In this document: one piece after another, positions 11,192 through 39,985 of the stretch | Layout of the letters: each line of letters opens with the position of its first letter | Position numbering within the stretch: the first letter of the stretch is position 1 | Source: an uncultured Bacilli bacterium | GTDB lineage: Bacteria > Bacillota_I > Bacilli_A > RF39 > UBA660 | Direction of reading: 5' to 3' | Assembly: GCA_944329195.1 (NCBI GenBank) | Contig: CALVHX010000003.1 | Location: 1 to 55,445 of the forward strand | DNA length: 55,445 nt | The notes under the pieces: model-generated | What the model saw: the letters and a program-made list of their open reading frames with translations, nothing else | Databases searched by the model: none | What the model was told of the DNA's origin: nothing | Program-made: the position numbers and the translations under genes

Positions 11192-11250
11192 AATTATTGC
11201 TTCTTTTTTCCTTTTATTGTATAATTGATTTATGATATGGAGGAGCGGTA

Positions 11251-22064: not shown

Positions 22065-24410
22065 ATGGCTAACGTGAGTAATTATTATATAGATAAAAGA
22101 GAAAACTTAATTAGTAATAAAGACTCTTATGTTGTTGGAAAAAAGTATCGTTTTACTGTTTTATCTTCTCGTTTAATTAGGCTAGAATATAGTGAAAGTG
22201 GTGTTTTTGAAGATAGACCGACATCCTTAGTCATAAATAGGTCCTTTCCAAAAGAAGAGTATTCTATTACTGAGAGTAATACGCTTATACAAATTACTAC
22301 TAGTGTTTTTACAATTACTTATGTAAAGGAAAGTCCATTCAAAGCGGGACCTTTGGGTGGAAACCTTAAAGCGGCAATTAATGGGACTGATAAGGAATGG
22401 CAAATTAACAGTCCAGAAGCTAAAAACTTTAGGGCTATTAATTATTCAATTGACAGCGCTAAAAATAAGATTGTTTTAGATAAGGGTCTATATTCTTTAG
22501 ATGGTTTTTGTGTTATTGATGACTCTAATTCTTTAGTGTTAGATGATAATGATACTTTTGTCGAAAGAGAAAATAAGGAAAAAGATTTATATTTATTTTT
22601 GTATAATAAAGATTTTGAAGGATGTTTAACTGACTATTTTACCTTGACTGGTTATCCGAATTTGATACCGAGATATGCATTGGGTGTGTGGTGGTATAAG
22701 AATGATAAATATAACTCTAATGATATAATTAATTTAGTAAATAAGTTTAGCAGTAGTAATGTGCCTTTATCAATTTTTTTACTGGGAGATTGTTGGCATG
22801 GTGAAGTTAACTATTATACTCCTAATAATAGTCAGATAGATCTTTTAGGAATAAGTAATTTTTTAAATCAACAAAAAATAAAATTAGGGGTAACTATTAA
22901 TCCGAAATTGGAAATTAAGAAAGGAAGCTTTGAATATAATATAATCAGTAGTTACTATAATGGCGATAAACTTAATTTTATTCCTCTATCTAATGAAAAA
23001 CTCGGTATTTATTTAAATTTATTTATAAATAATTTAGAAAATTTGGGTGTTGATTTATTTAGTATCGATTACAACAATGCGTTAGATAGAATTACTCTAT
23101 GGAAATTTAATCATTATCATTGTGGTAGAAATGAAATAAGAAATAGAAGGGGACTGGTATTATCTCGTAATAGTGGCATAGCATCTCATCGATACCCTGT
23201 TGTCTTTAGCGGAAAGACATTAGTTAACTGGACGACGTTAAATTTACTTCCAAGGTATAATTTACAGGCATACAATATAGGAATATCTTTTGTTGCACAT
23301 CCAATAGGGGGATATTTTGGTGGTGTAGAAGAGGATGAATTATATTTAAGATACGTTCAGTTTGCCACTTTTTCTCCTATTTTCTTACTTGCTAGTGAGG
23401 GTGGAAAATATTATAAAAGGGAACCTTGGATGTGGAATTCTATTATAGAAAGACATGCCTTATACTATATGAATTTAAGATATCGTCTAATACCGTATTT
23501 GTATACTGAAAGTTATGATTACCATAAAACTGGTCATGGTATAATTAAACCTTTTTATTATGATTATCCTAAAATAGTCGATGAACCTATTTTTAATAAT
23601 CAGTATTTTTGGGGAAGGGAGTTTTTTGTAGCTCCTATTACTAATAAGAAGAATTTAATTATTAATAGGGTGATGAAAAAGATATTTGTTCCTTCTGGTA
23701 TTTGGTTTGACTTTTTTAATGGTAAAAAGTTTAATGGTAATAAGAATTATAATAATTTTTATCGTGATGAAGATTATCCTGTTTTTGTGAAAGCAGGTGC
23801 TATTGTGCCTATGAGTATCAATATAAGAGAGGAAATACCAAGTGCCTTAGAAATCAATATATATCCTTTGGCTAGCGGTGAGTATAGTCTATATGAAGAT
23901 GATGGATATAGTAATAATTATAAGAGAGGATTGTATATGATAACTAATTTTAGTTATCAATATGAACAAGATAATTATACTTTTAAGATAGAAAAAAAAG
24001 ATGGTAAGAATTTACTTAATACGAGAAGTTATCTGTTACGATTTAAAAATACTAAGAATATAACTGAAGTAGTTATTACTGATAAAATGGTTAAATATAA
24101 CTGCTATTATGATGGAAATGATTTTATAGTGAGTTTAGATAACTTAATTATAGGTAGAAATTTTGAAGTTAATATAAAAGGGAAAGATATTTTGGTTAGT
24201 TCAGTTAGAGTTATCAATGAAGAAATTAAGGAAATATTGTATGACTTGCAGATTGAAACTAAACTTAAAGAAAAAATTGATGAAATACTATTTAGTGATT
24301 TGGAAGTAAAGAAAAAGAGAATAAAGATTAGAAAATTAAAGAGAAAGGGTCTGGATAGTAAATACATTAAAATATTTATTAATTTACTTGAATATGTCGA
24401 GAAAGCATAG
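22065..24410 (+). CDS. Glycoside hydrolase family 31-like protein (probable pseudoenzyme)
   Basis: LTGYPNLIPRYALGVWW, HRYPVVFSG, ELYLRYVQF, LRYRLIPYLYT, LYEDDG (DUF5110-like). Confidence 0.85.
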   Translation: MANVSNYYIDKRENLISNKDSYVVGKKYRFTVLSSRLIRLEYSESGVFEDRPTSLVINRSFPKEEYSITESNTLIQITTSVFTITYVKESPFKAGPLGGNLKAAINGTDKEWQINSPEAKNFRAINYSIDSAKNKIVLDKGLYSLDGFCVIDDSNSLVLDDNDTFVERENKEKDLYLFLYNKDFEGCLTDYFTLTGYPNLIPRYALGVWWYKNDKYNSNDIINLVNKFSSSNVPLSIFLLGDCWHGEVNYYTPNNSQIDLLGISNFLNQQKIKLGVTINPKLEIKKGSFEYNIISSYYNGDKLNFIPLSNEKLGIYLNLFINNLENLGVDLFSIDYNNALDRITLWKFNHYHCGRNEIRNRRGLVLSRNSGIASHRYPVVFSGKTLVNWTTLNLLPRYNLQAYNIGISFVAHPIGGYFGGVEEDELYLRYVQFATFSPIFLLASEGGKYYKREPWMWNSIIERHALYYMNLRYRLIPYLYTESYDYHKTGHGIIKPFYYDYPKIVDEPIFNNQYFWGREFFVAPITNKKNLIINRVMKKIFVPSGIWFDFFNGKKFNGNKNYNNFYRDEDYPVFVKAGAIVPMSINIREEIPSALEINIYPLASGEYSLYEDDGYSNNYKRGLYMITNFSYQYEQDNYTFKIEKKDGKNLLNTRSYLLRFKNTKNITEVVITDKMVKYNCYYDGNDFIVSLDNLIIGRNFEVNIKGKDILVSSVRVINEEIKEILYDLQIETKLKEKIDEILFSDLEVKKKRIKIRKLKRKGLDSKYIKIFINLLEYVEKA

Positions 24411-24436: not shown

Positions 24437-24829
24437 TTGTGTATGAATGAGGTACTTAATATTTTACTTGAATATATTATTGTATATGTACTTATTTTCA
24501 TACTTAATTATCTTTTTTTTGTAAGAAGAAAAACAAAGTATAATAAAAATAAAGTGCCAGTAGAATTTTACTATTTAGTAAATTTGTATAAGCTCGATCA
24601 AAAGAAAATTAATTATAAAAAGTTTATTTATATAACGGCTTTTATTAATACCTTTATTGTAGCTAGTACTTATATTGTTATTTATAGATTATTAGATAGC
24701 TGGATATGGCAACTTGTTTTTGGGATAATAATAATTATTTTATTGATTGTAATTTGTTATGGATTACTTGGTAGATATTACCAAAGAATTATGAACAAAG
24801 GAAAGAAGAGAGGTAAGAAGAATGTATAA
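24437..24829 (+). CDS. Hypothetical membrane protein (3 TM)
   Basis: GGAGG RBS, hydrophobic segments, overlaps leuS start. Confidence 0.7.
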
Positions 24830-27638
24830 TTTTCGTAAAACAGAAAAAAAATGGCAGGAGTATTGGGAAAAGAATGATACCTTTAGAACTGATATTTACG
24901 ACTTTAGTAAACCTAAATATTATGTTTTAGATATGTTTCCTTATCCTTCCGGTGTCGGGCTTCATACTGGTCACGCCGAAGGATATACGGCAACTGATAT
25001 AATTGCTAGGATGAAAAGAATGCAAGGATATAATGTACTTCATCCAATGGGATGGGACTCTTTTGGGCTTCCAGCGGAGCAGTATGCTATTAGTACTGGT
25101 AATCATCCTAATGGTTTTACTGAGAAAAATATAGAAACGTTTAGAAAACAACTCAAGTCACTTGGCTTTTCTTATGATTGGAGTAAAGAAATATCTACTA
25201 GTGATCCTAAATATTATAAATGGACACAGTGGATATTTAAAAGACTATATAATGATGGACTTGCGAAATATATCGATATGCCAGTTAATTGGTGTGAAGA
25301 ACTTGGATGTGTACTTTCCAACGATGAAGTTATAAATGGAAGAAGTGAAAGAGGTGGATATCCTGTTATTCGTAAAAATATGAAACAATGGGTTATGGAT
25401 ATTCCAAAGTATGCTGAAGTGCTTCTTTCTGGTTTAGATAAATTAGACTGGCCAGAGTCGACAAAGGAAATTCAAAGAAACTGGATTGGAAAATCGGTTG
25501 GAGCAGAAATTACTTTTAAAGTAGCAAATACTAACAAGGAATTTATCGTGTTTACGACGAGAGCGGATACTTTGTTTGGGGCTACTTACTGCGTGCTTTC
25601 TCCCGAGCATAAATTAGTTGATGAAATTACGACAGATAGTCAAAGAGAGGCTGTAGATAAATATAAAGAAATTGCCTCTACTAAATCTGATTTAGAAAGA
25701 ACAGAGTTAAATAAAGAAAAAACGGGATGTTTTACTGGGGCATATGCAATAAATCCTGTAAATGGTAGGAAGATTCCGATTTGGATTGCAGATTATGTTT
25801 TAGCTACATATGGTACAGGTGCCATAATGGCAGTACCTGCACACGATGAGAGAGATTATGAATTTGCTTCAAAATTTGGCCTTGATATTATTCCTGTATT
25901 ACAACAAGAAACGGGAATAAGAAGGGAAAAAGAAAGCTTTAAAAATATTATAGTAGCTGTTATTTATGATCAAAATTCAGATAAATATTTAACAATAAAC
26001 TGGAAAGACAAAGATGGAAGATTATTTGTTAGCGGAACTAAAAAAGAAAATGAAACCGATTTAGAATGTGCTATAAGAGAAATACAAGAAGAAACGGGGT
26101 ATACCAATATTAATTTTGTGAGAAACACTTTTCCTATTAATCATCATTATTTTGCCTATAATAAAAATAAAGCTTACTCTATAAATGTAGTTGGTTTGCT
26201 ATTTGAATTAGTAGATGATACTAAAGTTAACACTAATTTAGATGAAGATGAAAAGGATAATTTTAAAATTGAATGGGTATGTAAAGAACAAATTTCGGAG
26301 GTAATCGATGAACTTCACAGTACTGTATTTTGTAATCTTATATATCCTAAAGCTTATACTGGAGATGGGGCTCATATAAATTCTGATTTCTTAAATGGAC
26401 TTGGCAAACAAGAGGCAATTGATAAAATGATTTCATGGCTAGAAGATAAGAAGATAGGTAGTAAGAAAGTTAATTATCGCTTAAGAGAATGGATTTTTGC
26501 TAGACAAAGATATTGGGGTGAACCTGTTCCCGTTGTCCATTTAGAAGATGGAACTATAAAATTATTGGATGATAAAGATTTACCGCTAGTGCTTCCTGTT
26601 ATGGAAGATTATAAAAGCAGGAATGGTAAAGCTCCTTTAGATAATGCCCAAGATTGGAAAAATGTCGTAATAGATGGTGTTAAAGGCGTAAGAGAAACTT
26701 CAACGATGCCTGGAGCGGCAGGGTCTTCTTGGTATTTTCTTAGATATATTGATCCACACAATGAAAATGCTATTGCAGATGAAGAATTACTTAAGCACTG
26801 GATGCCTGTCGATTTATATATTGGAGGACCTGAACATGCTGTTGGACATTTATTGTATTCAAGATTTTGGAATAATTATTTATATGATAAAGGTATATCT
26901 CCAGTTAAAGAACCATTTGAAAGATTAGTTCATCAAGGAATGATACTTGGGGAAAATGGTATTAAAATGGGTAAGAGATATCCTGAATTTGTAATTAATC
27001 CTACAGATATTGTAAATAGTCATGGAGCTGATGCACTTCGCTTATACGAAATGTTTATGGGACCATTAGAGGCAGATAAACCATGGAGTAGTTCTGGTAT
27101 TGATGCCGCTAAAAAGTTTATCGATAGAATATATAGAATTTTTGAAGATGGTAAAGTACTCGATAAAGAAAATAAAAAGCTGGAGAAAATTTATCATCAA
27201 ACAATTAAGAAAGTGACAAGTGATTATGAAACTCTTAACTTTAATACTGCTATCAGTCAGATGATGATTTTTGTAAATGCTGTCTATAAGGAAGGTTTTT
27301 TACCTAGAGAATATGCTTTTGGCATTGTTAAAGTACTTAGTCCTCTATGCCCTCATTTAGGAGAAGAACTTTGGGAAATGTTAGGTAATAATAATACTAT
27401 TGCTTATGAAAAGTGGCCTACCTTTGATGAGAATAAAATAGTAGAAGAAGAAGTGTCTATTGCTGTCCAAGTTAATGGTAAACTAAGAGATACTATTAAG
27501 GTATTACAAGATGCTGATAAAAGTGTACTAGAAAATGAAGCACTTAATAGTGAAATAGTTAAGAAGTGGGTCGATGGTAAAGAAATAGTAAAAATTATTA
27601 CTGTACCTAATAGAATTGTAAATATTGTCGTAAAATAG
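24822..27638 (+). CDS. leuS: Leucine--tRNA ligase with inserted Nudix domain
   Basis: [46 protein letters not shown]; Nudix box at 26034-26102. Confidence 0.98.
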
Positions 27639-27754
27639 GCACTCAAGTGAGTGCTTTATATGTTATTTAGATACTATATAGTATTTTGGAAAATACGAAA
27701 AAAATCACAAATTTTTTATGGTGATTTATATTCAAAAGCAATAGGTGGGATGAT

Positions 27755-28348
27755 ATGAGTAAAATTTCAAATGCTATTCAAATGGTAAATTATTTAAATA
27801 CAGGTAATAAATATACTGTGAAGGAACTCGCAGCAAAATTGGGTGTCACTGAACGCATGATTAGATATTATAAGGCAGAATTAGAGCAAGCTGGAATTCC
27901 CATAGATACTTTCATGGGACCAAATGGTGGATATTACATATTAAATATAAAAAATCAATATAATCACTTTAATAAATATGATTTGCAGTTATTAGAAAAT
28001 GTTTACAGAATTTTGGAAGAGAATGGTTATGAAGATATTGATAAGTACTGGAAAATAATTGATAAGATTAGAGTTGCTAGTGATATTGAGGAAGAAAAAA
28101 GTAAATATTTTCTAGATAATTCAACTGGTAATAATTCGGAATTATATTTTATATTAAAAAAAACGATTGTAAATAGATCATCAATAAGAATCTTATATAG
28201 AAATTTGAAGCAAGAATGGCAAGAAAGGATTATCCATCCTTTACAGATATTTAATTATGAAAATAAGTTTTATGTAACGGCTTTTTGTGAATTAAGAAGT
28301 GATATTAGACATTTTGAATTTGATAGAATTAGATTGAACGATAAATAA
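27755..28348 (+). CDS. HTH-WYL domain transcriptional regulator
   Basis: wHTH ELAAKLGVTERMIRYY...GPNGGYY; WYL RIIHPLQI...FYVTAFCELRSDIRHFEFDRI; no C-terminal WCX domain. Confidence 0.93.
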   Translation: MSKISNAIQMVNYLNTGNKYTVKELAAKLGVTERMIRYYKAELEQAGIPIDTFMGPNGGYYILNIKNQYNHFNKYDLQLLENVYRILEENGYEDIDKYWKIIDKIRVASDIEEEKSKYFLDNSTGNNSELYFILKKTIVNRSSIRILYRNLKQEWQERIIHPLQIFNYENKFYVTAFCELRSDIRHFEFDRIRLNDK

Positions 28349-28353
28349 TTTAG

Positions 28354-28383
28354 ACGAAATATTTCCTACATGTGTGCTATAAT
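28354..28383 (+). promoter_or_regulatory. Extended -10 promoter with palindrome in the -35 position
   Basis: TGcTATAAT at 28375-28383; ACGAAATATTTCCT at 28354-28367 (one mismatched pair). Confidence 0.5.
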
Positions 28384-28408
28384 ATAGTTACAGGTGGAGG
28401 TGGTTAAA

Positions 28409-28885
28409 TTGAATAAAAAAATATTTATTGATTTTGATGGCGTGATTTTTGATACAGAAAAAAGGGTAGTTGATAGAAAAAAACAAAATCCAAAAATGAG
28501 TTGGAATGAATTTTTCGAAAATTTAGATTGGTTTCAATTGTTAGAAGAATCAATGGTTATAAATAATGCAATTGATTATATATTAGAAGGACAATCGAAA
28601 TCCAAACAGATTGCTATTTTAACAAAAATTCATACTTTGGTTGAAATGCAAGCCAAAGTAAAAGCATTAAGAAGTAGAGGGATAGAGGTTCCAATATTGT
28701 TTGTTCCTCCTCATGTTAAAAAGAGTCAGGTTTATTTACCCAATAATGAAGAAATTTTGATCGACGATAGTCTTAAAAATCTTGTCGATTGGAAGCAGAA
28801 TGGTGGAACTAGTATCTATTTTAATGAGGAATTAGTTTGTATACCTCAATTTAAAACAATAAAGTCTTTAAACAAGGTATTATAA
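28409..28885 (+). CDS. Small HAD hydrolase, 5'(3')-nucleotidase-like
   Basis: IFIDFDGV, ILTK, KKS, LIDDSLKNLVDWKQNGG; TTG start after GGAGGTGG. Confidence 0.82.
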   Translation: MNKKIFIDFDGVIFDTEKRVVDRKKQNPKMSWNEFFENLDWFQLLEESMVINNAIDYILEGQSKSKQIAILTKIHTLVEMQAKVKALRSRGIEVPILFVPPHVKKSQVYLPNNEEILIDDSLKNLVDWKQNGGTSIYFNEELVCIPQFKTIKSLNKVL

Positions 28886-28894
28886 GGTGGTTTT

Positions 28895-30418
28895 ATGATA
28901 AGCGAGGAATTGATAAAAAATTATGAAAGAGCTCTAATGCAAAAATATAATGCCGTTTGTTTTGACATTGATGGTACTCTTACCGAAGATAATTCAACAA
29001 GGATAGATGTTCGAATATTACCTATTCTAGCGAATATATTAAAGCGACACATTCCGGTAGTATTTATAACTGGTAGGGGAGAGACTGGACTGAATGATTT
29101 ATCAAGAGAAATAGTTTATGATTTAAAAAATAAACATGGTGTTACAGATAAACAATTGTTAAAAATGTACGCCCTTACTAATGATGGTGCTAGGATATTT
29201 ATGACTAGTAATGGTAGTAGTAAACTTTTTAATGTTAGTGAATATATTTCAGAAAGAGAAGACTTGCTTAAACTAAATGAGTTAAATATCAAGATTGTTA
29301 ATTTGTTGAGGTCAACTGTATTAGGTGATTACTGTAAAGTTACTTATTCTAAAGATTCTGATAGTGATTTAATAGTTAACATTCGATTGTTAGTTTTAGA
29401 TGAAAGTATTGAAGTCAAAAATACAATAATAAAAGAAATTGAATCTTTAATAAATGATACTAAAAGCTGGAATATTAATTTAACTATTGGAATACATAAT
29501 GGGAAGCAAATTCTACAAGTAGGCACAACAACAAAGGATAAGGCAATGCAAGTGGTTGAAAGAATGATTGGTATTCCACAAAATTCGATGTTAAGGATAG
29601 GAGATTGTGGAGATAAAAATGGTAATGACTATTCGATGTTGAATTGTCCCCAAGGATTTAGTGTGAATAAAGTAAGTGGTAAGAATGATAGTTGCTTTCC
29701 AGTTATTGATAATGGAAAAATAATAAGGGGAGTAAATGCTACATTATTTTTAATGAAAAAAGTTAAATTATTACCAACGATTTGTTTAGAACACGCGATA
29801 CAGGAAGATTATAAAAAAGCATATGCTAAAGTGGAAAAGAAAATGAATCAAGGTAAAAACAAAAATATTTATTATTTTGATGGTTTAATAAATGAAAAGT
29901 TTCAGACAGTTTATGGCATTAATAGTTTGTTCGATTCATCCAGTGGAAGTATCAAAATTCCCATGTATGAGTGGGTTAATATATCAGATGATAACCAGCT
30001 TAAACGGTTGTGGTTAACATATGATGGTGCAAGTTTATGTTATTCCATGTATGATAATGAAAATATTTTACTAAGAGGTTCAAGAATATATTACTACTTT
30101 TTGTCACAAAGATTTCATGATGAAAAGAAAAAAGAAGATATAACAACTAAAGAGATGATATATGGTTGGTTGAATAATAATGGAGAGTTTTTGCTTCAAT
30201 CCTTGAATGCTTTTAGTAATGTTAATGTAGATGAATTAAACAACATAAAAATGATATTGGGAATAATTGATAATGTTAGAAATTATCTGCTGATTTTATT
30301 AAACCAATTAATTGTTGGAAATGATACGGAAAAAAATATTATGTTAAATTTGACTTGTTTAAATAAAAATACACTGATTTATAAAATATACAATAATTTG
30401 GTAAGTGCGAAAAATTGA
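28895..30418 (+). CDS. HAD type IIB hydrolase with C-terminal extension (possibly N-part of a HAD-PRTase fusion)
   Basis: CFDIDGTLT, FITGRG, TKDKA, IGDCGDKNGNDYSML. Confidence 0.85.
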   Translation: MISEELIKNYERALMQKYNAVCFDIDGTLTEDNSTRIDVRILPILANILKRHIPVVFITGRGETGLNDLSREIVYDLKNKHGVTDKQLLKMYALTNDGARIFMTSNGSSKLFNVSEYISEREDLLKLNELNIKIVNLLRSTVLGDYCKVTYSKDSDSDLIVNIRLLVLDESIEVKNTIIKEIESLINDTKSWNINLTIGIHNGKQILQVGTTTKDKAMQVVERMIGIPQNSMLRIGDCGDKNGNDYSMLNCPQGFSVNKVSGKNDSCFPVIDNGKIIRGVNATLFLMKKVKLLPTICLEHAIQEDYKKAYAKVEKKMNQGKNKNIYYFDGLINEKFQTVYGINSLFDSSSGSIKIPMYEWVNISDDNQLKRLWLTYDGASLCYSMYDNENILLRGSRIYYYFLSQRFHDEKKKEDITTKEMIYGWLNNNGEFLLQSLNAFSNVNVDELNNIKMILGIIDNVRNYLLILLNQLIVGNDTEKNIMLNLTCLNKNTLIYKIYNNLVSAKN

Positions 30419-31224
30419 TGATAAATATTTCCTTTAATAAAAGTTATAAAATCAATAATAACGATATTATTCAACTGATAAAAAATGTAATTACGATTAC
30501 CGATATATTTAGGATAGATTTTGCTAAACAACCTATTAAAGCAAATTATTCTAAAGAATTTAGGGTGTATAGGGAGATAGATAATTTTGCTGAAAATTTT
30601 ATCACCTCTTGTTTAACGATGCAAAAGGATTTAAGAATTTATAAAAAGGGTATTTGTGGTGTGTGTTATGGCGGCTTGGAACTACCAATTATAATGAAAT
30701 CAATGGATAATAGGATAGATGATGTATCTGTGTTAAAGTTTAACAAAAATGTAACTGGTTATTCCAAAAAGCAATCATTGGAGTTGAGATTTTTTGATGT
30801 ATTTAATGCTGGTGGTATTGAACTTTTTGGTGTCGATAAGCAAAAATCTTATGTTTTATTAGATGATAATTTATTAACAGGAAAAACTATGCAGCTTGCA
30901 TTGACTACTTTATATGACATAGGAATTGATGTAGATAAAATTATTGTTGTTAGATATCCGGGTGTTAATAGAATTAGTCAAATGTTTATGCCAAATCATG
31001 GGGCTATTGACTATAGACATTTTTTTGAATTTATTGAGGGTTTATATTTTCCTAGTCCATATAGTTGGAGAGACCCATATAGTTCTGATCCATATGAGGA
31101 TTCTCTTGGGATATTTGATTTGAATAGAAGAAAAGTGCTAGAGTGTTTAGTAAAAAACGGTGACTACTCTAAAAATAGTGAAGTGTCATTTGTAAAGAGG
31201 TTGATTAGGAATGAAAATAATTAA
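30415..31224 (+). CDS. Type I phosphoribosyltransferase domain protein
   Basis: PRPP-binding loop VLLDDNLLTGKTMQ; GVCYGGLELP. Confidence 0.8.
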   Translation: MMINISFNKSYKINNNDIIQLIKNVITITDIFRIDFAKQPIKANYSKEFRVYREIDNFAENFITSCLTMQKDLRIYKKGICGVCYGGLELPIIMKSMDNRIDDVSVLKFNKNVTGYSKKQSLELRFFDVFNAGGIELFGVDKQKSYVLLDDNLLTGKTMQLALTTLYDIGIDVDKIIVVRYPGVNRISQMFMPNHGAIDYRHFFEFIEGLYFPSPYSWRDPYSSDPYEDSLGIFDLNRRKVLECLVKNGDYSKNSEVSFVKRLIRNENN

Positions 31225-31323
31225 TGTTGCTAGCTTGTTGTTTAAGGTGTATATGTATATGTTATATTATTTAAAATTTAGTTTGTGTGAAAAATACAAA
31301 AATGAAATATAAGGAGAGGTTGA

Positions 31324-32277
31324 TTGATTTTAATAATGAATGAGATTGTAGATGTATTAAAAAAAATTAATAATAATATTTATATTAGTGGTCATAAAAA
31401 GGCTGATTGTGACTCTTTATTCTCTTCTTTAGCTCTGGCTCTTTTACTTAACGATATGGGAAAGACTTGCAAGGTTTATATTGAAAAAGAAGATATAGAG
31501 AAGGTAGAATATTTTCAATGTAACGATATCATAGTGGATGACATTGTTGATGATAATTTTACTTTTATATTATTGGACTTAAATAAGATAGAAAGGCTTC
31601 CAGATAAAATGATATATGCCTTTCAAAAAGCTACTACAACAATCAATATAGACCATCACATAAAAAATAATACCAAATCAAAATTTGTTTATAGCTTTGA
31701 AGAAAAAAGTTCAACGTGTGAGATAATTTATGACATAGCTAGTGAATTACAAGTAAAGATTAGTAGTAAAATTGCTGAATTGTTATTCACTGGTATAGTT
31801 AGCGATACAAATATGTTAGTGAATAATGCTGATTATAATACTTTTTTAATATTATCACATTTATTAAAGAAAAACATAGATAAAGATTTTCTAATAAATA
31901 AGTATGTTATTGAAAAAACAGAAGAAGAAATGAAAATTATAGCATATATGATAAATAATATTATTTTTGATGAGGTTTATTATGTTGTATTGGATATGAA
32001 GAGGGAACCTTTTAGAAGTGTTTCATATGTTGATATTTCAAAAAAATGTATACCAACTATTATGAGTGATGAAAATATAAATATATTGATTGTAATAATG
32101 GATTATGGAATTAAAAAGAAAGGAGAAATACGGAGTAAAGGAAAAATTGATTCTGAAAAGTTAGCTAATATTTTAACTGGTGGTGGCCATTTTCATGCTG
32201 CTGGTTTCTCTAATAAAAAAAGTATAGATGAGATAATAGATATTTCGAAAAAATATATGGGTGATATTAGTGTATGA
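31324..32277 (+). CDS. DHH/DHHA1 phosphoesterase (NrnA-like)
   Basis: H..ADCD, LLD, NIDHH, GIVSDT, GGGHFHAAG. Confidence 0.92.
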   Translation: MILIMNEIVDVLKKINNNIYISGHKKADCDSLFSSLALALLLNDMGKTCKVYIEKEDIEKVEYFQCNDIIVDDIVDDNFTFILLDLNKIERLPDKMIYAFQKATTTINIDHHIKNNTKSKFVYSFEEKSSTCEIIYDIASELQVKISSKIAELLFTGIVSDTNMLVNNADYNTFLILSHLLKKNIDKDFLINKYVIEKTEEEMKIIAYMINNIIFDEVYYVVLDMKREPFRSVSYVDISKKCIPTIMSDENINILIVIMDYGIKKKGEIRSKGKIDSEKLANILTGGGHFHAAGFSNKKSIDEIIDISKKYMGDISV

Positions 32278-33301
32278 TATTTTAAAATATTATTATGATA
32301 TAGATGCAAATAACATAGAGCCTTTATCTGGCGGTTGGATGAATGGAAAGTATATAGTTACTTCAAATAAAAATAAATACGTTTTAAAAGTATATAATCA
32401 TAAAAAAATTGAAAAAATGAGTAATGGTGAATTTTCTACTAATTATTTAGATAATCAAATGTTAAATAATTTGAGAATAGTAAACTATATGAACGAATTA
32501 AAATTAAATTGCCCAAAAGTTATACCGACAATTTTTAGCGATTTAATTGTAAAGTATGGCAATGATAGGTTGACTTTAATGACTTATATAAATGGAAAGA
32601 ATGTAGATAGAAAAAGTATAACTGGAATTCAATTATGTAATTTGGGTAATGAATGTTGCAAGATGCATAATTTATTTAAAAATGTTAGCGATGAGTTATA
32701 TGTAGGTAAATATTTAGCGCTTCCTACTTTAAATGACTTAGAAAATAGACTTATTTATAACACGTCAATTGTTTCTGCTGAAACTTCTAAAGAATTTATA
32801 GAGTTATTAAAGTTTGAAAAAAGAATTATAAGAAAATTATGTGATACTAATATAATTGATGAAATACCAATTGGTATTATACATGGTGATTTTGCAGATG
32901 ATAATATAATATTTAGTAATGACGCTCCGTATATTGTTGATTTTGAATTGGTAAGAAAAAATTCTTATTTACAAGATATAGGTAGAATTCTTTTATCGTA
33001 TTGTTTTGATGATGGTGTAATTAATTTTGGAAGAATTAATAATTTCAAAGCTGGGTATGATAATTTGAACTATAGTCAAATATTGTTATCATTAGTTATT
33101 GTTTGGATTAATGAAATTAATATGTGGATAAAAAGTAATTATTTTAGTAGAAATTTGACTTTAAAAGCAAAAAGATTTCAAGACGAATTAATATATTTGA
33201 CTATAAATCTTGAAAGTATTATTGATTTGTATTTTTATTGTGACAATGAGGAAATAATAGGAAAATATAAATCTTGCGAAAAGAAATTAGTTAGAAGATA
33301 G
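32261..33301 (+). CDS. APH/choline-kinase-like phosphotransferase
   Basis: LSGGWMN, YVLKVY, IIHGDFADDNIIF, IVDFE. Confidence 0.88.
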   Translation: MILVYDILKYYYDIDANNIEPLSGGWMNGKYIVTSNKNKYVLKVYNHKKIEKMSNGEFSTNYLDNQMLNNLRIVNYMNELKLNCPKVIPTIFSDLIVKYGNDRLTLMTYINGKNVDRKSITGIQLCNLGNECCKMHNLFKNVSDELYVGKYLALPTLNDLENRLIYNTSIVSAETSKEFIELLKFEKRIIRKLCDTNIIDEIPIGIIHGDFADDNIIFSNDAPYIVDFELVRKNSYLQDIGRILLSYCFDDGVINFGRINNFKAGYDNLNYSQILLSLVIVWINEINMWIKSNYFSRNLTLKAKRFQDELIYLTINLESIIDLYFYCDNEEIIGKYKSCEKKLVRR

Positions 33302-33320
33302 TTTAAGGGAGATTAATGAT

Positions 33321-35285
33321 ATGAAAATAATTAGTATAGGTGACTTAGTTACGGATTTCTATTATAAGAATGGTAAATTAATTGGTATCAATGGTGGTAT
33401 GACTGCGCATAATATAATTGCAAATATTAGTAAAATGGGCTTTGAATCTGCTACTTATGGTGTATGTGGAAATGATGCCGCTGGAAAGATAGCAATAGAT
33501 AGTTTGAAAAATATTGGTGTCAATATTGATAACATAAAAATAATAGATGGTTTAGAAACGCGCTGCTTTCACGTGTCATATTTTGAGGAAAATGGTAAAT
33601 TAGATTTTACTTCAAAAAAGAGATGCCCTTTTTGCGGTGAGAAACACTGGTATAATGATAGTAATATAAATTGCGATGATATTTTGAAAAATATAGATGA
33701 AGATGATATTTTAGTATTTGATAATTTAAATAGTAGAAACCAAATTATTATTGATAACTCTCGTAATAGAAAAATGTTAGATTTGGGTCAGTATTTTGAA
33801 CTAGACGATTATAGTGATAATGAGATTATTGATAAAATTAAAGGTAAGTTTGATTTTATAAACTTAAATGAACGTGTTGAAAAATATTTAATGAAAAGAT
33901 TTTCTATAAATTTATTAGAAGATGTATATAGTATATTGAAACCTAAATTAGTAATTGTTACTAGGGGTAGAAAAGGATCTGATTTTGTATTTAATGGTTA
34001 TAAAGTGAATAAAGAATTAGCAAATCCTTCTTTGGAACTTGATCCTACGGGAGCGGGCGATGCGTTTTTTTCTGTGTTTATTGGTGAGTATGTAAAAAAT
34101 AATTATGTTCTAGATGAAAAATTTATAGATTTTACTTTTGATAAGGCTACTAAACTTACGAAGAAAGTGGTAAAAAAGTTTAGTGCTAGGGGACATATAC
34201 AAAATTTATATAAGATAAAAAAGTTAGATAATAGTTGTACTTGTAGAAATTTTGATATTTTATTAAGAAAACAAATTAAAAGGTGTAATATAAATGTAAA
34301 TAACTTGGAAACTAGAATTATAAATGCTATTAAGAGCGGTGCTTATGAAAAATTAGTAAATATTAATTTTAAAGATTTAAATAATAGTATTTTTATTGGC
34401 ACAGGGGGTTCTTATGCTAGTGCTAAGTTTTCTTCTAAAGTTATTAATTATTTGTATGGTTTAAATACAATTGCTTTATTTCCAAGAGATTTGTATTATA
34501 GAAATAATAGTCGTGTAGATTCTATATTTATGTTTACTTATTCTGGCACGACAGATGATTTATTAATTTCAACTAAATCAATTGATAATAAAATTAAGTA
34601 TATTATTTCCAAAGGTGAGCTACAAAAAATCATAGCTAAAACAGGAATAACTAAAAATAACATTATTTCGTATAGGACAAGTACTAATAGAGGTAAGGAG
34701 AGAGGCTTCTTGTCTTTTGAAGGAGTTTTGGCTCCCGCTAGTTTATTTTTGAAACTATATTTTGAAAAAAACTTGAGAGATGATGTTGATTACTTTATTA
34801 GAGATAGTATAAACTATTGGAAGAATTATTTTGATAAGTATTTTAAGGATAATAAGAAAATGTTAAAAGATTTTCTAAAAATGGGAGGATTGCTAAATAT
34901 TTTTATAGGAGATTTTACGGAAGCGGCTGGTAGTGATTTAGAAAGTAAAATAGTGGAGTCTGGTATTTATAATTGCTTAATTCATGAAAAGAAAAATTTT
35001 TCTCATGGAAGATTTATTAATTATGAACATTTAAGTCAAAAAAAGAACATTTATCTTAAACAAAAAAGTACAAGCTTATATGAAGAAAAATTATTAGATT
35101 ATTTATCAAAAGATAAAAATCTAATAATTGAAAGTAGATATGATGGTATATTATGTGAATTTGATTTGTTAGTTGCTTCTCAATATTTGGTATATTATAT
35201 ATCGAATTTTCTTGATATAGATATTTCAAAGCCAAAGTATAGTGAAGATGCTATGAAAATATATTTTTACAAGGGAGAATTATAG
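33321..35285 (+). CDS. PfkB-family kinase fused to tandem SIS domains
   Basis: GGMTAHN, GNDAAG, VTRG..GS, DPTGAGDAF; CPFC insert; FIGTGGSYASA, TYSGTT, E.KIVESG...KNFSHGRF. Confidence 0.88.
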   Translation: MKIISIGDLVTDFYYKNGKLIGINGGMTAHNIIANISKMGFESATYGVCGNDAAGKIAIDSLKNIGVNIDNIKIIDGLETRCFHVSYFEENGKLDFTSKKRCPFCGEKHWYNDSNINCDDILKNIDEDDILVFDNLNSRNQIIIDNSRNRKMLDLGQYFELDDYSDNEIIDKIKGKFDFINLNERVEKYLMKRFSINLLEDVYSILKPKLVIVTRGRKGSDFVFNGYKVNKELANPSLELDPTGAGDAFFSVFIGEYVKNNYVLDEKFIDFTFDKATKLTKKVVKKFSARGHIQNLYKIKKLDNSCTCRNFDILLRKQIKRCNINVNNLETRIINAIKSGAYEKLVNINFKDLNNSIFIGTGGSYASAKFSSKVINYLYGLNTIALFPRDLYYRNNSRVDSIFMFTYSGTTDDLLISTKSIDNKIKYIISKGELQKIIAKTGITKNNIISYRTSTNRGKERGFLSFEGVLAPASLFLKLYFEKNLRDDVDYFIRDSINYWKNYFDKYFKDNKKMLKDFLKMGGLLNIFIGDFTEAAGSDLESKIVESGIYNCLIHEKKNFSHGRFINYEHLSQKKNIYLKQKSTSLYEEKLLDYLSKDKNLIIESRYDGILCEFDLLVASQYLVYYISNFLDIDISKPKYSEDAMKIYFYKGEL

Positions 35286-35346
35286 AAAGATATGCTAGTT
35301 TTATTTTTAACTTCTAGTAGTGAAAACTTAAATTATTTAATTAATT

Positions 35347-35383
35347 AGACTTATTTCATTAAAAATAAAACGGAAATAAGTCT
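35347..35383. terminator. Hairpin downstream of the island operon
   Basis: AGACTTATTTC / GAAATAAGTCT inverted repeat. Confidence 0.5.
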
Positions 35384-35422
35384 TTTAATTAATTATCATA
35401 TGTTAAAGATACGGCGAAATTA

Positions 35423-35589
35423 GTTACTATTCACAGCCTTTTGCCCTTTAATTTATAGTACTTTAAATTTAAAATTTGGATAAAAATAGGCTGTGAATAC
35501 TTGCTATTACACATATTTATAAACTCAAAAAAACAATAAAGTCCTTAAAATAAAGAAATTAATTGTCGAATTTAGCTGTGAATAGTAAC
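35423..35589. repeat. Nested inverted repeats, possible MITE/IS-end relic
   Basis: GTTACTATTCACAGC (35423-35437) / GCTGTGAATAGTAAC (35575-35589); extra copy AGGCTGTGAATA at 35488-35499. Confidence 0.6.
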
Positions 35590-35658
35590 CGAAATTAAAA
35601 AAAGATGAAATTTTACTCTTGAATATACAAGCTCTTAATGTTATAATTATATTGTCAT

Positions 35659-35733
35659 TGCCTCGTCGCCAAGTGGTAAGGCACCAGACTCTGACTCTGG
35701 CATTCGTTAGTTCGAATCTAACCGAGGCAACCA
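35659..35733 (+). tRNA. tRNA-Gln(CUG)
   Basis: TGCCTCG acceptor / CGAGGCA-A-CCA; CCAGA-CT CTG AC-TCTGG anticodon arm; GTTCGAATC. Confidence 0.96.
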
Positions 35734-35742
35734 CGCAAAATT

Positions 35743-35770
35743 AGCCCTTATTTTTTAAGGGCTTTATTTT
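35743..35770. terminator. Terminator between tRNA-Gln and a convergent small ORF
   Basis: agccctta / taagggct stem with A/T flanks. Confidence 0.7.
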
Positions 35771-35785
35771 AACAAGTTACAATTA

Positions 35786-35920
35786 CTAGCAGCAATTATT
35801 ACCGATGGGATGATTTCTATTATCGCAGAATAAAATAAAAAATATTATCAATACAATAATAATTATCCATATCCAATTGCTACCGCATCCATAATAAGCA
35901 GGATATCCGCATCCATACAT
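35786..35920 (-). CDS. 44-aa small membrane protein, YjcZ-like spore peptide (not in ORF track)
   Basis: GAAAGGAG RBS; MYGCGYPAYYGCGSNWIWIIIIVLIIFFILFCDNRNHPIGNNCC. Confidence 0.75.
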   Translation of the reverse strand: MYGCGYPAYYGCGSNWIWIIIIVLIIFFILFCDNRNHPIGNNCC

Positions 35921-36038
35921 GTTAATCAAATCTCCTTTCATAATTATTATATTTTAATTAAGAAATGGCGAATATTATGGATACCTAATATAATGGTAGT
36001 TTATAACAAAAATGTTAGTATATAGTAGGAGGAAAATT

Positions 36039-37700
36039 ATGACAAATAGAGATTTAGCTAATTTAATGTATCCAAATGTTACTAAAACACCAGATGATTA
36101 TGAAAAGAAATATCCAGATAGAAATCTTCCCGAAGGTGCTGTCGTATCAAGATTTGCTCCATCTCCAACGGGATTTGTTCATATGGGAAGCTTACTTACC
36201 GCTCTTATTGCCGCTAAAGTTCCGAAAGACACTAAAGGGGTATTCTATCTTAGAATTGAAGATACTGATGGGAAGAGGAGTATTGAAAATGGGATTCAAG
36301 GTATTATTGATGATCTTGATAACTTTGACATAACTATAGATGAAGGTGTCGTATCTGAGTCTTTAGAAAAAGGAATTTATGGTCCTTATATTCAGACTAA
36401 AAGAAAAGAGATATATGATACTTATGCTAAATATATGATAGAAAATGATCTTGCTTATCCTTGTTTCTGCTCGGAGGAAGAGTTAGATGAAATAAGAAGT
36501 ATCCAAGAAAAAAACAAGGAGAGAATTGGTTATTATGGAAAATATGCTAGATGTCGTCACCTTAGTATGGAAGAAGCGTATGATAGGATTAAAAATGGTG
36601 AGAAGTATGTGATTAGATTAAAATCTCATGGAGATTTTAATAAAAAAGTAGAAGTTAATGATTTAGTTCGTGGCAAATTAGAATTTCCGGAAAACGATAT
36701 TGATACTATCCTTATTAAGAGTGATGGTATTCCTGTTTATCATTTTGCACATGTTATTGATGATCATTTAATGAGAACCACGCATATTCTTCGTGGTGAA
36801 GAATGGATAAGTAGTACTCCTATTCATTTACAGTTATTTAGAATGCTTGGGTTTAAAATTCCTAAATACGCTCATTTAGGTCTTGTTATGAAAGTAGATG
36901 AAGATGGGACTAGAAGAAAACTATCCAAAAGAAAGGATCCAGAGGCCGCTGTTAGTTATTATCATGAAAAGGGGATTCCAGTCGAGGCTGTAAAACTATA
37001 TCTTATGACTATTGCTAATTCTAACTTTGAGGAATGGTTAAACCAGAATCCCGATAAAACTATAGATGACTTTAAATTTGATTTTAAGAAGATGAGCACT
37101 AGTGGGTCTTTATTTGATATCGAGAAACTTTTGAATATATCAAAAAATTATATTAGCAGATTGACAAAAGAAGAAGTTTATAGTGGTCTATGTGAGTGGA
37201 CATCAGAATTTGATTCTGAGTTTTATAATATTATAGTCAATTATAAGGACTATACTATGGATATTCTTAATATTGAAAGGGAACAAAAAAAGCCTAGGAA
37301 GGATTATGCTAGTTATTCAGAAATAAAAAGTCAGATATTTTATATGTATGATGAGTTATATAGTCCTACTGGTTATGAATGGGGAAGTATTACGGATAGA
37401 AAAGAAATTATGAATATTTTAAATACTTACATGGATAAATACTTTGATGTTTCTTGTAAAGAAGAATGGTTTGACAATGTAAGGAAGCTTACCGATATAT
37501 TGGGTTATGCTAGTAATATGAAAGATTATAAAAATAATCCTAATAATTATAAGGGAAGTGTTGCAGATATTTCTACTGTACTTAGGGTAGCTATTACTTC
37601 AAAGTGTACTACACCTGATCTATATGTGATTATGAAGCTTCTTGGTAAAGAGAAAATTAAAAAAAGAATTGCCAATATAGAAAAAATATTAGCTGATTAA
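36039..37700 (+). CDS. gltX: Glutamate--tRNA ligase
   Basis: RFAPSPTGFVHMG, LRIEDTD, AYPCFCS, RGEEWISS, KLSKR; ATG 36039 after AGGAGG. Confidence 0.97.
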   Translation: MTNRDLANLMYPNVTKTPDDYEKKYPDRNLPEGAVVSRFAPSPTGFVHMGSLLTALIAAKVPKDTKGVFYLRIEDTDGKRSIENGIQGIIDDLDNFDITIDEGVVSESLEKGIYGPYIQTKRKEIYDTYAKYMIENDLAYPCFCSEEELDEIRSIQEKNKERIGYYGKYARCRHLSMEEAYDRIKNGEKYVIRLKSHGDFNKKVEVNDLVRGKLEFPENDIDTILIKSDGIPVYHFAHVIDDHLMRTTHILRGEEWISSTPIHLQLFRMLGFKIPKYAHLGLVMKVDEDGTRRKLSKRKDPEAAVSYYHEKGIPVEAVKLYLMTIANSNFEEWLNQNPDKTIDDFKFDFKKMSTSGSLFDIEKLLNISKNYISRLTKEEVYSGLCEWTSEFDSEFYNIIVNYKDYTMDILNIEREQKKPRKDYASYSEIKSQIFYMYDELYSPTGYEWGSITDRKEIMNILNTYMDKYFDVSCKEEWFDNVRKLTDILGYASNMKDYKNNPNNYKGSVADISTVLRVAITSKCTTPDLYVIMKLLGKEKIKKRIANIEKILAD

Positions 37701-39445: not shown

Positions 39446-39985
39446 TTGTCAGCATATAAAGAGATAGTAACAAAGGCAGTAGTGGGTAAGGGTAAAAAAT
39501 ATTATCGTAATACTTATACTGTCAATACTGAGACAGTTCCTAATACTGTACTTGGATGTTGGGTAATAAATCATAAGTTTTCTGGTCAAGAAGTAGATGG
39601 AAAAATTGAAATAGATGGTTCTTTCGATGTGAATTTATGGTATTCTTATGACAACGATACAAAAACTTCTGTTATAACAAAAAATATACCATATAAAGAA
39701 GTGGTAACGGTATCCCAAAAAGAGACAACTGATTCTAGTAGTAAAGATATTATAGTAAGAAGTTTAAAACAACCTAGCTGTATATCTGCAAAAGAAAATG
39801 GAAATGCTATTAATATTGAGATAGAAAAAGAATTGGGAGTAGAAATTGTAGGTGATACTAAGGTTAAGATAGCTATTGAAGAAGATGAAGAGCCATGGGA
39901 TGAAATACCAGAAGAAGTTACTGAAGAAGTAGAGAAGGAAATTACTGATAATATTGATCCTAACTATATTAAAGAAGAAAAATAA
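39446..39985 (+). CDS. cotE: Outer spore coat protein CotE
   Basis: YKEIVTKAVVGKGKK, LGCWVINH, DVNLWYSY, acidic tail. Confidence 0.93.
   Translation: MSAYKEIVTKAVVGKGKKYYRNTYTVNTETVPNTVLGCWVINHKFSGQEVDGKIEIDGSFDVNLWYSYDNDTKTSVITKNIPYKEVVTVSQKETTDSSSKDIIVRSLKQPSCISAKENGNAINIEIEKELGVEIVGDTKVKIAIEEDEEPWDEIPEEVTEEVEKEITDNIDPNYIKEEK

Follow-up and report, generated by a model that had tools for sequence, protein, structure and literature searches.

What is encoded by the row of genes that separates leuS from a tRNA-Gln gene in an uncultured bacterium of the Bacilli (lineage RF39, UBA660)? The row occupies positions 27755-35285 of the forward strand of contig CALVHX010000003.1 (assembly GCA_944329195.1). 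The whole stretch of 55,445 nucleotides that was analysed, called the window below, is contig 3 of a 1.12-Mb genome in 59 contigs that is 93.7% complete, and the nearest relatives of its proteins that bear a name are from "Candidatus Onthousia" and comparable uncultured Bacilli of the gut. An earlier reading of the letters alone (the original prediction) had taken the row for a new system of seven co-oriented genes, and seven open reading frames (ORFs) on the plus strand are indeed present from leuS (24822-27638) to tRNA-Gln (35659-35733). They belong to a conserved cassette whose core consists of a WYL regulator with a helix-turn-helix (HTH) domain, a small NT5C-like HAD phosphatase, a fusion of a HAD-IIB phosphatase, a helical middle and a phosphoribosyltransferase (PRTase)-like domain (HAD-PRT), and a fusion of a PfkB kinase with a zinc-binding-type linker and a double-SIS domain (PfkB-SIS). 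We tentatively read the cassette, with a probability of about 0.4, as a WYL-controlled pathway that makes and turns over a riboside-like metabolite.

Relatives of PfkB-SIS were collected from congeneric genomes, from 185,579 species genomes (the best 80 of 182) and from metagenome contigs (the best 80 of 255). Partners were counted only where 6.5 kb or more of sequence precedes PfkB-SIS, that is in 47 species-level genome loci and 43 metagenome loci. The most frequent partners are the WYL gene, located upstream (36/47 genome and 29/43 metagenome loci), HAD-PRT (33/47 and 26/43) and the small HAD gene (31/47 and 18/43), followed by an alpha/beta-hydrolase (12/47 and 11/43), a CatA-like acetyltransferase (9/47 and 8/43), a DHH phosphoesterase (1/47 and 2/43) and an APH-fold kinase (1/47 and 0/43); none of the queried partners is found in 4/47 and 12/43 loci. 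The commonest architecture is WYL - small HAD - HAD-PRT - PfkB-SIS (16 genome and 8 metagenome loci), and the second is the same core with acetyltransferase and hydrolase genes before PfkB-SIS (8 and 7 loci). Since the arrangement recurs at 26-80% protein identity on contigs with unrelated flanks, it is beyond chance. HAD-PRT adjoins PfkB-SIS even where the latter is only 26-31% identical to the window protein, on contigs with a GC content of 0.34-0.54 (L122, L123 and L164).

The family was also sampled with a single genome for each genus (151 genomes). Of these, 14 harbor a full-length PfkB-SIS gene, six a HAD-PRT gene and three more only a 3' remnant of 44-54 codons; all nine HAD-PRT genes or remnants adjoin PfkB-SIS and none lies elsewhere. 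The original prediction had made itself depend on co-occurrence in other genomes, and this held across about 90 loci, as did its view of a conserved WYL-headed set of phosphoryl- and ribosyl-handling enzymes. It had also remarked that the row contains no transporter or glycosidase; no glycosidase is present in the cassette, and no transporter in any of its architectures. PfkB-SIS occurs alone or with the WYL gene only in 5/14 genomes of the sample and in many of the ~90 loci, and the neighbors of the copies standing alone are uninformative (two-component proteins, LemA, RuvA, a C39-like peptidase). The three PRTase remnants (G457:C1:113753-113914, G486:C7:45844-45999 and G524:C3:59440-59571) lie upstream of an intact PfkB-SIS gene, directly so in G486 and G524 and at a distance of 1.3 kb in G457. 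As they resemble scars left by deletion of the HAD-PRT gene, the state with PfkB-SIS only seems to be derived. About 20 further genomes of this sample contain stand-alone double-SIS or PfkB relatives.

In the window, the fusion gene is divided into an N-terminal part (HAD-IIB phosphatase plus helical middle, 28895-30418, plus strand) and a C-terminal part (divergent type I PRTase-like domain, 30415-31224, plus strand), which overlap at a TGATG in different frames. Relatives show a single ORF of 764-789 aa, and the gene is one ORF in 43 loci. All four of four independent chicken-gut metagenome runs, from four studies, carry at full depth an extra C behind position 30407 (the 1-nt difference at 30407-30408, plus strand), which places both parts in one frame. 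The HAD-IIB-helical-PRTase protein is therefore normally encoded by one fused gene in this species, the natural unit of the row is six genes, and the split in the window is an assembly-specific or rare 1-nt difference; the original prediction had rightly noted a junction in need of repair. Two of the four runs (X5 and X10) are possible sources of the window DNA, yet they differ from it at 30407 and at 7-11 other positions. Because the gene is also broken in several other loci (L022, L023, L035, L042, L052 and L083, with an in-frame stop in L015 and stops in G399), its decay seems to be recurrent.

The HAD-IIB part belongs to subfamily IIB, as it matches TIGR01484 with 45.6 bits (cut-off 41.8) and its motifs DxDGT, TGR, K and GDxxxxxD are invariant. 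For an AlphaFold2 (AF2) model of a fused homolog, with a predicted local distance difference test score (pLDDT) of 83.6, the top Foldseek hits were trehalose-6-phosphate phosphatase, the IMP nucleotidase ISN1 and Cof-type HADs. Foldseek searches with both AF2 models, HAD-PRT and PfkB-SIS, recognized the PfkB and HAD-IIB folds only and left the helical middle and the PRTase domain unplaced. In type I PRTases, the loop that binds 5-phosphoribosyl 1-pyrophosphate (PRPP) follows a hydrophobic strand and consists of an acidic pair, three residues and T-G-x-T. A motif of this type, DDNxxTGxT, is present in 24/24 aligned homologs (D149, D150 and T157 invariant, T154 nearly so), and the motifs YREIDNF, YGGxELP and VRYPxxNR are likewise invariant in the 24 sequences. 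The match of the domain to PF00156 (E 3.7e-3, 17 bits) falls below the Pfam gathering cut-off of 26.3, with precomputed matches to the same family on two relatives (P0380, which is distant, and P0270). All profile matches in the PDB are weak, PyrR being the best (0.0095), followed by APRT, UPRT, PRPP synthetase and ComF. Only 98 relatives of the domain were found and none of them is named, the atlas clusters for HAD-PRT being labeled "hypothetical" or HAD-IIB only. Single-sequence PDB searches with HAD-PRT and with the SIS half of the other fusion returned nothing useful.

The constant component of the cassette is the PfkB kinase - Cys4 linker - double-SIS fusion (654 aa, 33321-35285, plus strand), whose two halves are joined in 80/80 loci. 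Pfam recognizes PfkB in 40/40 family members and SIS in 34/40, the window copy showing PfkB only (5.1e-13). Invariant or nearly invariant elements are GAGDAF, C102/C105, C306/C308, GTGGSY, SYSG and E546...H562-G-R. In the AF2 model (pLDDT 90.8), the N-terminal half superposes on fructokinases, ribokinases, 2-keto-3-deoxygluconate kinases and nucleoside kinases. It weakly matches models of fructoselysine-6-kinase, fructokinase and tagatose kinase (~1e-10), as well as structures of fructokinase and aminoimidazole riboside (AIR) kinase, and the PDB profile matches of the fusion include an acarbose 7-phosphotransferase (3.5e-8). The SIS half matches double-SIS glucosamine-6-phosphate (GlcN6P) deaminases (1j5x, 8eol), 2aml, 3hba, the isomerase domains of GlmS and the FrlB-like 3eua. 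According to PMC12359202, catalysis by FraB depends on E214 as the base and on H230, in an HGP loop, as the acid, both essential and 16 residues apart; the SIS half has an invariant E546 and H562 (in an HG motif) with the same spacing of 16 residues. With a limit of E 1e-3 the PfkB-SIS family comprises 798 clusters, and with 1e-30 it still has 108, some fused and some split; look-alike PfkB/SIS clusters are present in Bacillota, Actinomycetota and Myxococcota. A canonical GlmS-like gene also exists in this genome.

The small capless HAD phosphatase (163 aa, 28394-28885, plus strand) resembles 5'(3')-nucleotidases of the NT5C type. The motifs DxDGV, K and DD are invariant among 22 aligned orthologs, 13 of which match NT5C, the 5'(3')-deoxyribonucleotidase family PF06941, at E up to 1, the best with 4.6e-7. 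The window copy has no significant Pfam match, and the family profile found no relative in the PDB. The first gene of the row (27755-28348, plus strand) codes for a WYL-domain transcription factor of 197 aa, with an N-terminal HTH_11 domain (5.8e-7, residues 9-60, 29.7 bits against a cut-off of 25) and a WYL domain (8.5e-14, residues 134-193, 51.8 bits against a cut-off of 21.8); its best match in PADLOC is a generic cas-associated WYL model (9.7e-29). An extended -10 element (TGnTAnAAT) begins 13-41 nt before the WYL start codon in 26/48 loci, which fits a WYL gene heading its own unit; the window contains no exact match. The WYL factor probably autoregulates the cassette.

The two remaining genes of the window fill a variable slot before PfkB-SIS. 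One codes for an NrnA/TmPDE-like DHH-DHHA1 phosphoesterase (31324-32277, plus strand), in which DHH (8.1e-21) and DHHA1 (4.6e-6) both exceed the Pfam cut-offs. Its best structural matches are NrnA (5.5e-31) and TmPDE (1.3e-29); it stays below the cut-off of the NCBIfam equivalog for NrnA, a bifunctional oligoribonuclease and pAp phosphatase (86 bits vs 350), and a second DHH paralog, 28% identical, lies elsewhere in the genome. The other codes for an APH-fold small-molecule kinase (32261-33301, plus strand; APH 7e-17) with the motifs HGDFADDN and DFE, whose sole PDB profile match is the type II homoserine kinase 2ppq (7e-4). Both genes occur together in three loci only, namely the window, L065 and L179, which amounts to 1/47 of the genome loci counted. 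L065 repeats the full window arrangement, including DHH and APH, at 45-58% identity, and L179, which starts within the PRTase gene, carries PRT - DHH - APH - PfkB-SIS at 47-58%. The arrangement is an old but rare variant, and the two enzymes, which had been counted as part of the set, are optional modules and do not belong to its core. WYL, DHH, APH, PfkB and HAD-IIB, as assigned in the original prediction, were all recovered from the window proteins themselves; its PRTase, small HAD and SIS assignments are weaker and rest on family profiles.

The slot is otherwise mostly occupied by a CatA-like acetyltransferase and an alpha/beta-hydrolase (esterase), or empty. The acetyltransferase is always accompanied by the hydrolase (17/17) and APH by DHH (3/3); the hydrolase occurs six times without the acetyltransferase, and DHH three times without APH. 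We suggest that the slot holds pairs of opposite activity, an adder never without its remover, which would mask and unmask a reactive or toxic intermediate. A further optional module may be a protein of 444-447 aa that directly follows PfkB-SIS in L011 (13872-15671), L064, L091, L095 and L169 and combines HD_4 (RelA/SpoT-type HD) with AAA_28 (NadR-kinase-like); a NUDIX gene comes next in L011 and L064. Other house-cleaning enzymes recur as neighbors: Ham1 adjoins the cassette in L012/L143, L034, L075 and L079 and lies ~5 kb upstream in L060, NUDIX is found beside it in L064, L092 and L145, HD_3 in L057, and HD_4-AAA_28 in L064, L091, L095 and L169. These neighbors fit a nucleotide-centered role and do not separate synthesis from repair.

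A terminator-like hairpin (27637-27656, plus strand; stem of 8 pairs, 4 of them GC, followed by a T-rich tail) closes the leuS unit and forms the upstream boundary of the cassette. A putative promoter and short leader would occupy 27657-27754 (plus strand), with weak promoter-like sites at 27655-27682 and 27704-27732. The intergenic gaps along the row measure 45, 9, -4, 99, -17 and 19 nt. Downstream, an AT-rich hairpin at 35334-35394 (plus strand; -16.3 kcal/mol, z = -5.0) with a U-rich stretch next to it is the probable terminator; none of 200 shuffles reaches its folding energy. Given the flanking hairpins, the short gaps and the finding of no terminator-like site within 27700-35650, transcription of the seven ORFs as one unit is plausible. 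An Rfam scan of 27400-36100 at E up to 1 returned just the tRNA and a spurious antisense match, and a riboswitch was rejected as a clue to the ligand.

Comparison with congeners indicates how the cassette reached its position. Only 6/24 congeneric genomes carry a full-length PfkB-SIS gene, and a seventh has a copy cut by a contig end. The tRNA-Gln gene lies within 55-1039 nt of leuS in 12/26 congeneric leuS loci, and a GltX-type synthetase gene comes next in six of these 12 empty sites. A WYL or small HAD gene behind leuS was found in 0/26 of the congeneric loci, within the 1.5 kb available. In view of these empty sites and of a gap of 8,021 nt between leuS and tRNA-Gln in the window, the cassette is an insertion of ~8 kb in this genome. 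G017 and G012 (leuS 78% identical) and G014 and G010 (leuS 48% identical) all have a PfkB-SIS that is 57-59% identical to that of the window; this identity does not track host relatedness, which argues against simple vertical descent. The cassette is an accessory, horizontally mobile unit of small-genome gut Bacilli. It is found near-identical in chicken-gut metagenome runs of 11 studies. Two phylum-level genome searches matched nothing outside the window's own family, with hits in 2/400 genomes for a distant PfkB-SIS query and in 2/399 for a PRTase module from Bacillus cereus described below.

No mobility gene is present inside the cassette, a search for target-site duplications or att-like repeats around the insertion revealed only short AT-rich chance repeats, and the base composition equals that of the flanks, without anomaly in a window of ~28% GC. 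The 261 flanking genes of 80 genome loci fall into 197 families, one of which (f12), flanking several cassettes, is a hybrid histidine kinase. PADLOC and Pfam scans covered 149 flank proteins, without a matched control set. Some of them match defence or mobile-element models (mad3, mad8, PDC-S05, AbiO, RhuM, a Schlafen-type helicase, integrases, Fic), and the flanks overall are a mixture of housekeeping genes (many), mobile genes and defence-like genes; lacking that control, the matches are not counted as showing a defence island. A plasmid origin was rejected (0 PfkB-SIS among 72,556 plasmids), and so was a phage origin: across 2.9 million viral contigs, PfkB-SIS had a single weak match, in its SIS part, and HAD-PRT had none. 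That single match, in the IMG/VR viral contig L099 (GC 0.44), is an ORF at 9905-11821 for a 638-aa double-SIS-HAD-IIB fusion, with an N-terminal double-SIS match (21% identity, E 9e-6) and a C-terminal Hydrolase_3 (HAD-IIB) domain (3.8e-7). The induction by infection or damage and the antiviral role that had been proposed for the row thus found no direct evidence, with no viral copy and mixed flanks.

The cassette shares parts with three kinds of known system and fits none of them fully, with two fusion proteins that are uncharacterized. FrlD/FrlB of E. coli and B. subtilis and FraD/FraB of Salmonella likewise combine a PfkB-family kinase with a double-SIS protein that has the Glu/His pair. 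Unlike these pairs, the cassette has its kinase and SIS domains fused through a Cys4 linker, lacks the dedicated transporter, is headed by a WYL gene instead of the GntR-type regulator of frl/fra operons, and includes a PRTase-nucleotidase fusion and an NT5C-like HAD as partners. In the Frl and Fra pathways, an Amadori compound is phosphorylated at C6 and then cleaved. The SIS half scores 7e-4 against FrlB-type sequences, whereas its matches to uncharacterized or GlcN6P-deaminase-type double-SIS proteins are stronger (6e-9 to 7e-5).

Operons for "nucleoside-like metabolites" that combine a PRTase and a HAD and are associated with Ter genes were reportedly described by Anantharaman, Iyer and Aravind in 2012; Ter-type operons are linked to TerD/TelA-type genes and ATP-grasp. 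They resemble the cassette in having a PRTase, a HAD phosphatase and a predicted riboside-type product. In contrast, the PRTase of the cassette forms an orphan family (98 unnamed relatives plus 15 of the B. cereus protein), is fused to a HAD domain and is linked to PfkB-SIS and WYL. No Ter-type domain appeared in a Pfam scan of the seven proteins, no Ter-specific search having been made, and such domains are absent from the 25 most frequent Pfam families of the 149 flank proteins. The comparison with Ter operons that had been drawn earlier is hence sustained at the level of function, PRTase plus HAD, and not by a Ter-type domain in the seven proteins. WYL regulators also head defence or conflict operons (BrxR in BREX, CapW in CBASS, PafBC, DriD). 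In passages of PMC9503650, WYL or Nudix transcription factors are predicted to be the sensors of conflict operons, including ADP-ribose-processing ones. As in those operons, an HTH-WYL gene heads an accessory set of genes for nucleotide-handling enzymes; here, however, the regulator is short (197 aa) and nearest to cas-associated WYL models, and the effectors occur in no described defence system. With PADLOC-DB 2.0, only the WYL protein matches below E 0.001, to generic models, five of the six non-WYL proteins have no match at E up to 0.01, and the HAD-IIB ORF weakly matches C3a76 ("unknown function", E 0.0025). The row thus matches no named system, in agreement with the original prediction. 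No description of the cassette or of either fusion was found in published full text; supplements (e.g. those of PMC9503650 and PMC5512222) might list such neighborhoods.

The only homolog of the helical-middle-plus-PRTase module that was found in a cultured organism is a hypothetical protein of 473 aa (profile E 4.8e-53) on plasmid pRML02 of Bacillus cereus HN001 (NZ_CP011157.1), the sole HAD-PRT match in a tblastn search of plasmids. It has 15 relatives, all unnamed. Directly 3' of its gene, a CatA-like O-acetyltransferase is encoded, which shares 36% identity with the cassette enzyme (E 4e-39) and is matched by 12/12 family members. The row around them (L207, ~99.7-115 kb) also codes for a DUF6005 protein, a pyridoxal phosphate (PLP)-dependent aminotransferase, an acyl carrier protein (ACP), a PLP decarboxylase, an adenylate-forming enzyme and, by three genes, an ABC transporter, and an extra metG (methionyl-tRNA synthetase) lies divergently upstream. 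This gene content suggests a secondary-metabolite cluster, in which metG may be a self-resistance copy of the synthetase type. The plasmid row thus shares the PRTase module and the acetyltransferase with the cassette, but differs from it in lacking the HAD-IIB fusion, PfkB-SIS and WYL and in having an ACP, PLP enzymes and an ABC transporter. No published description of this row was found.

How could these components work together? We infer substrates, the order of reactions, WYL control and purpose (antimetabolite, signal or antiviral) from protein families and gene order. A first module, composed of the NT5C-like HAD and the HAD-IIB-helical-PRTase fusion, would transfer a 5-phosphoribosyl group from PRPP onto a base or an amine and then strip the 5'-phosphate from the ribotide to leave a riboside. 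This is suggested by the fusion of a PRTase to a phosphatase of ISN1/sugar-phosphate-phosphatase-like fold, and fusions such as HAD-PRT and PfkB-SIS usually join consecutive steps, the double-SIS-HAD-IIB protein of the viral contig L099 being a further fusion of this kind. A second module, PfkB-Zn-double-SIS, would phosphorylate a CH2OH group of a furanose or ketosamine, and the phospho-product would undergo an aldose-ketose-amine (Amadori-type) isomerization or a cleavage catalyzed by the Glu/His pair, as with FrlD/FrlB and FraD/FraB. It may represent the step of turnover, recycling or self-protection for the same or a related compound. The slot pairs would block and unblock a hydroxyl group, either by CatA-like O-acetyltransferase and alpha/beta-hydrolase or by APH-fold kinase and NrnA-like DHH phosphoesterase.

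Several points weigh against a riboside pathway. All the reactions named are drawn from distant homology, and the weak PRTase assignment relies mainly on one motif, with a Pfam score below the cut-off and a best PDB match of E 0.0095; the domain could instead have a regulatory role and bind PRPP or a nucleotide, as PyrR does. The proposal that the slot adds and removes a group is deduced from family names. The cassette has neither an exporter nor an enzyme for an acceptor scaffold, and the B. cereus row does without PfkB-SIS. Finally, PfkB-SIS is closest to catabolic kinase/deglycase or deaminase pairs and is often found alone or with WYL only; a solitary PfkB-SIS fits salvage as well as an orphan immunity gene. 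We regard as doubtful a more elaborate scenario, in which a stress or infection signal would open WYL-gated ribosylation from PRPP and dephosphorylation to a toxic riboside, the latter being masked by O-acetylation or O-phosphorylation and unmasked by the esterase or DHH enzyme, with kinase and cleavage activities of PfkB-SIS as self-immunity. Such a role of PfkB-SIS would explain why it persists as an orphan, sometimes beside a PRTase remnant, after loss of the synthesis module.

The cassette may alternatively serve salvage or metabolite repair, which we consider possible, if less probable than a riboside pathway. PfkB-SIS would then be a fused fructosamine- or aminosugar-6-kinase and deglycase or deaminase whose substrate is an Amadori or aminosugar compound inside the cell, and the released or damaged base or nucleotide would be recycled by the nucleotidases and the PRTase, as house-cleaning in a salvage-dependent 1.1-Mb genome. 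The matches of the PfkB half to fructoselysine-6-kinase, fructokinase and tagatose kinase and those of the SIS half to GlcN6P deaminases, the GlmS isomerase and 3eua, with the FraB-type Glu/His pair kept, agree with this, as do the matches of the PfkB half to fructokinase and AIR-riboside kinase structures. Where PfkB-SIS occurs with no partner or with WYL alone, both steps would already be present as a complete unit, and Ham1, NUDIX, HD_3 and HD_4-AAA_28 recur nearby. On the other hand, transporter and regulator differ from those of frl/fra operons, a PRTase-nucleotidase fusion making a nucleoside from a base would be wasteful, and the acetyltransferase and kinase adders have no catabolic role. 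Salvage also leaves aside the patchy distribution and variable location of the cassette, the biosynthetic-looking row around the cultured homolog of the PRTase module, and the canonical GlmS-like gene already in the genome. The earlier exclusion of sugar catabolism accordingly holds as far as transporter and glycosidase are missing, and is weakened by the resemblance of PfkB-SIS to the catabolic FrlD/FrlB and FraD/FraB pairs.

Abortive-type defence against phages, in which infection would relieve WYL repression and the two nucleotidases, the PRTase (by using up PRPP), the DHH enzyme and the kinase-isomerase would drain the nucleotides and sugar-phosphate precursors required for phage replication without any special product, seems unlikely to us. 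A WYL gene at the head, as known for BrxR and CapW operons and predicted for the sensors of conflict operons in the passages of PMC9503650, a patchy and mobile distribution with a variable slot, NT5C-like and NrnA-like enzymes that act on nucleotides, and the defence or mobile-element matches of some flanks speak for it. However, these flank matches come without a control set and many flanks are housekeeping, as are those of the window (leuS, tRNA-Gln and a GltX-type synthetase gene), only the regulator matches PADLOC below E 0.001, and depletion would leave the fusions, the acetyl and phosphoryl adders and the retention of a lone PfkB-SIS unexplained. Still less likely is the modification of a xenobiotic or antibiotic, with the APH-fold kinase, the CatA-like acetyltransferase, the esterase and the PfkB kinase inactivating an aminosugar- or nucleoside-type compound of the gut and the other genes degrading it. 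APH and CatA-type enzymes are classical drug-modifying folds, acarbose 7-phosphotransferase is among the profile matches, and the cassette is mobile and patchy among gut bacteria and near-identical across the chicken-gut studies. Yet both enzymes are optional (3 loci for APH, 9/47 and 8/43 for CatA-like) and the core does without them, they have diverged (48-82% identity) in step with the core genes and so do not represent recent resistance insertions, drug inactivation is not known to involve a PRTase-nucleotidase fusion, and no efflux gene is present. A chance row of unrelated housekeeping genes would agree with a base composition equal to the flanks and with the absence of mobility genes inside; it is highly improbable, as the order recurs in dozens of species amid unrelated flanks down to 26-31% identity, the components are fused, and HAD-PRT goes with PfkB-SIS in 9/9 cases.

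A riboside pathway under WYL control, if real, would add a new enzyme logic to the few bacterial pathways for nucleoside antimetabolites, in which a PRTase fused to a nucleotidase is combined with pairs that mask by acetyl or phosphoryl groups and with a fused kinase-deglycase, and would give a function to two widespread fusion architectures now named by their domains only. If its product were a masked antimetabolite with self-immunity, the chemistry by which uncultured gut Bacilli arrive at an antiviral or antibacterial nucleoside analog would be new, and the B. cereus plasmid cluster would contain a distant relative of the pathway. Deglycation or salvage would instead make it an unusual repair pathway, without transporter and under WYL control. 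Given its spread in chicken guts, the cassette could play a part in how gut microbes interact with each other or with phages.

Some features of the window outside the row were also observed. The leuS product (938 aa) contains a NUDIX domain (PF00293, 6.2e-9) inserted at residues 379-491, after the editing domain. Among 27 leuS matches in 26 genomes of the genus, such long frames are found only in G000 (947 codons) and G013 (948 codons), the rest having 798-824. Two adjacent ORFs of 488 and 509 aa (18968-20434 and 20505-22034), without Pfam match at E up to 0.001, lie upstream of a gene for a GH31 glycosidase (22065-24410). Finally, a homolog of the outer spore coat protein CotE (1.3e-50) is encoded at 39446-39985 in a genome of only 1.1 Mb, suggesting that this reduced-genome gut bacterium may still form spores.

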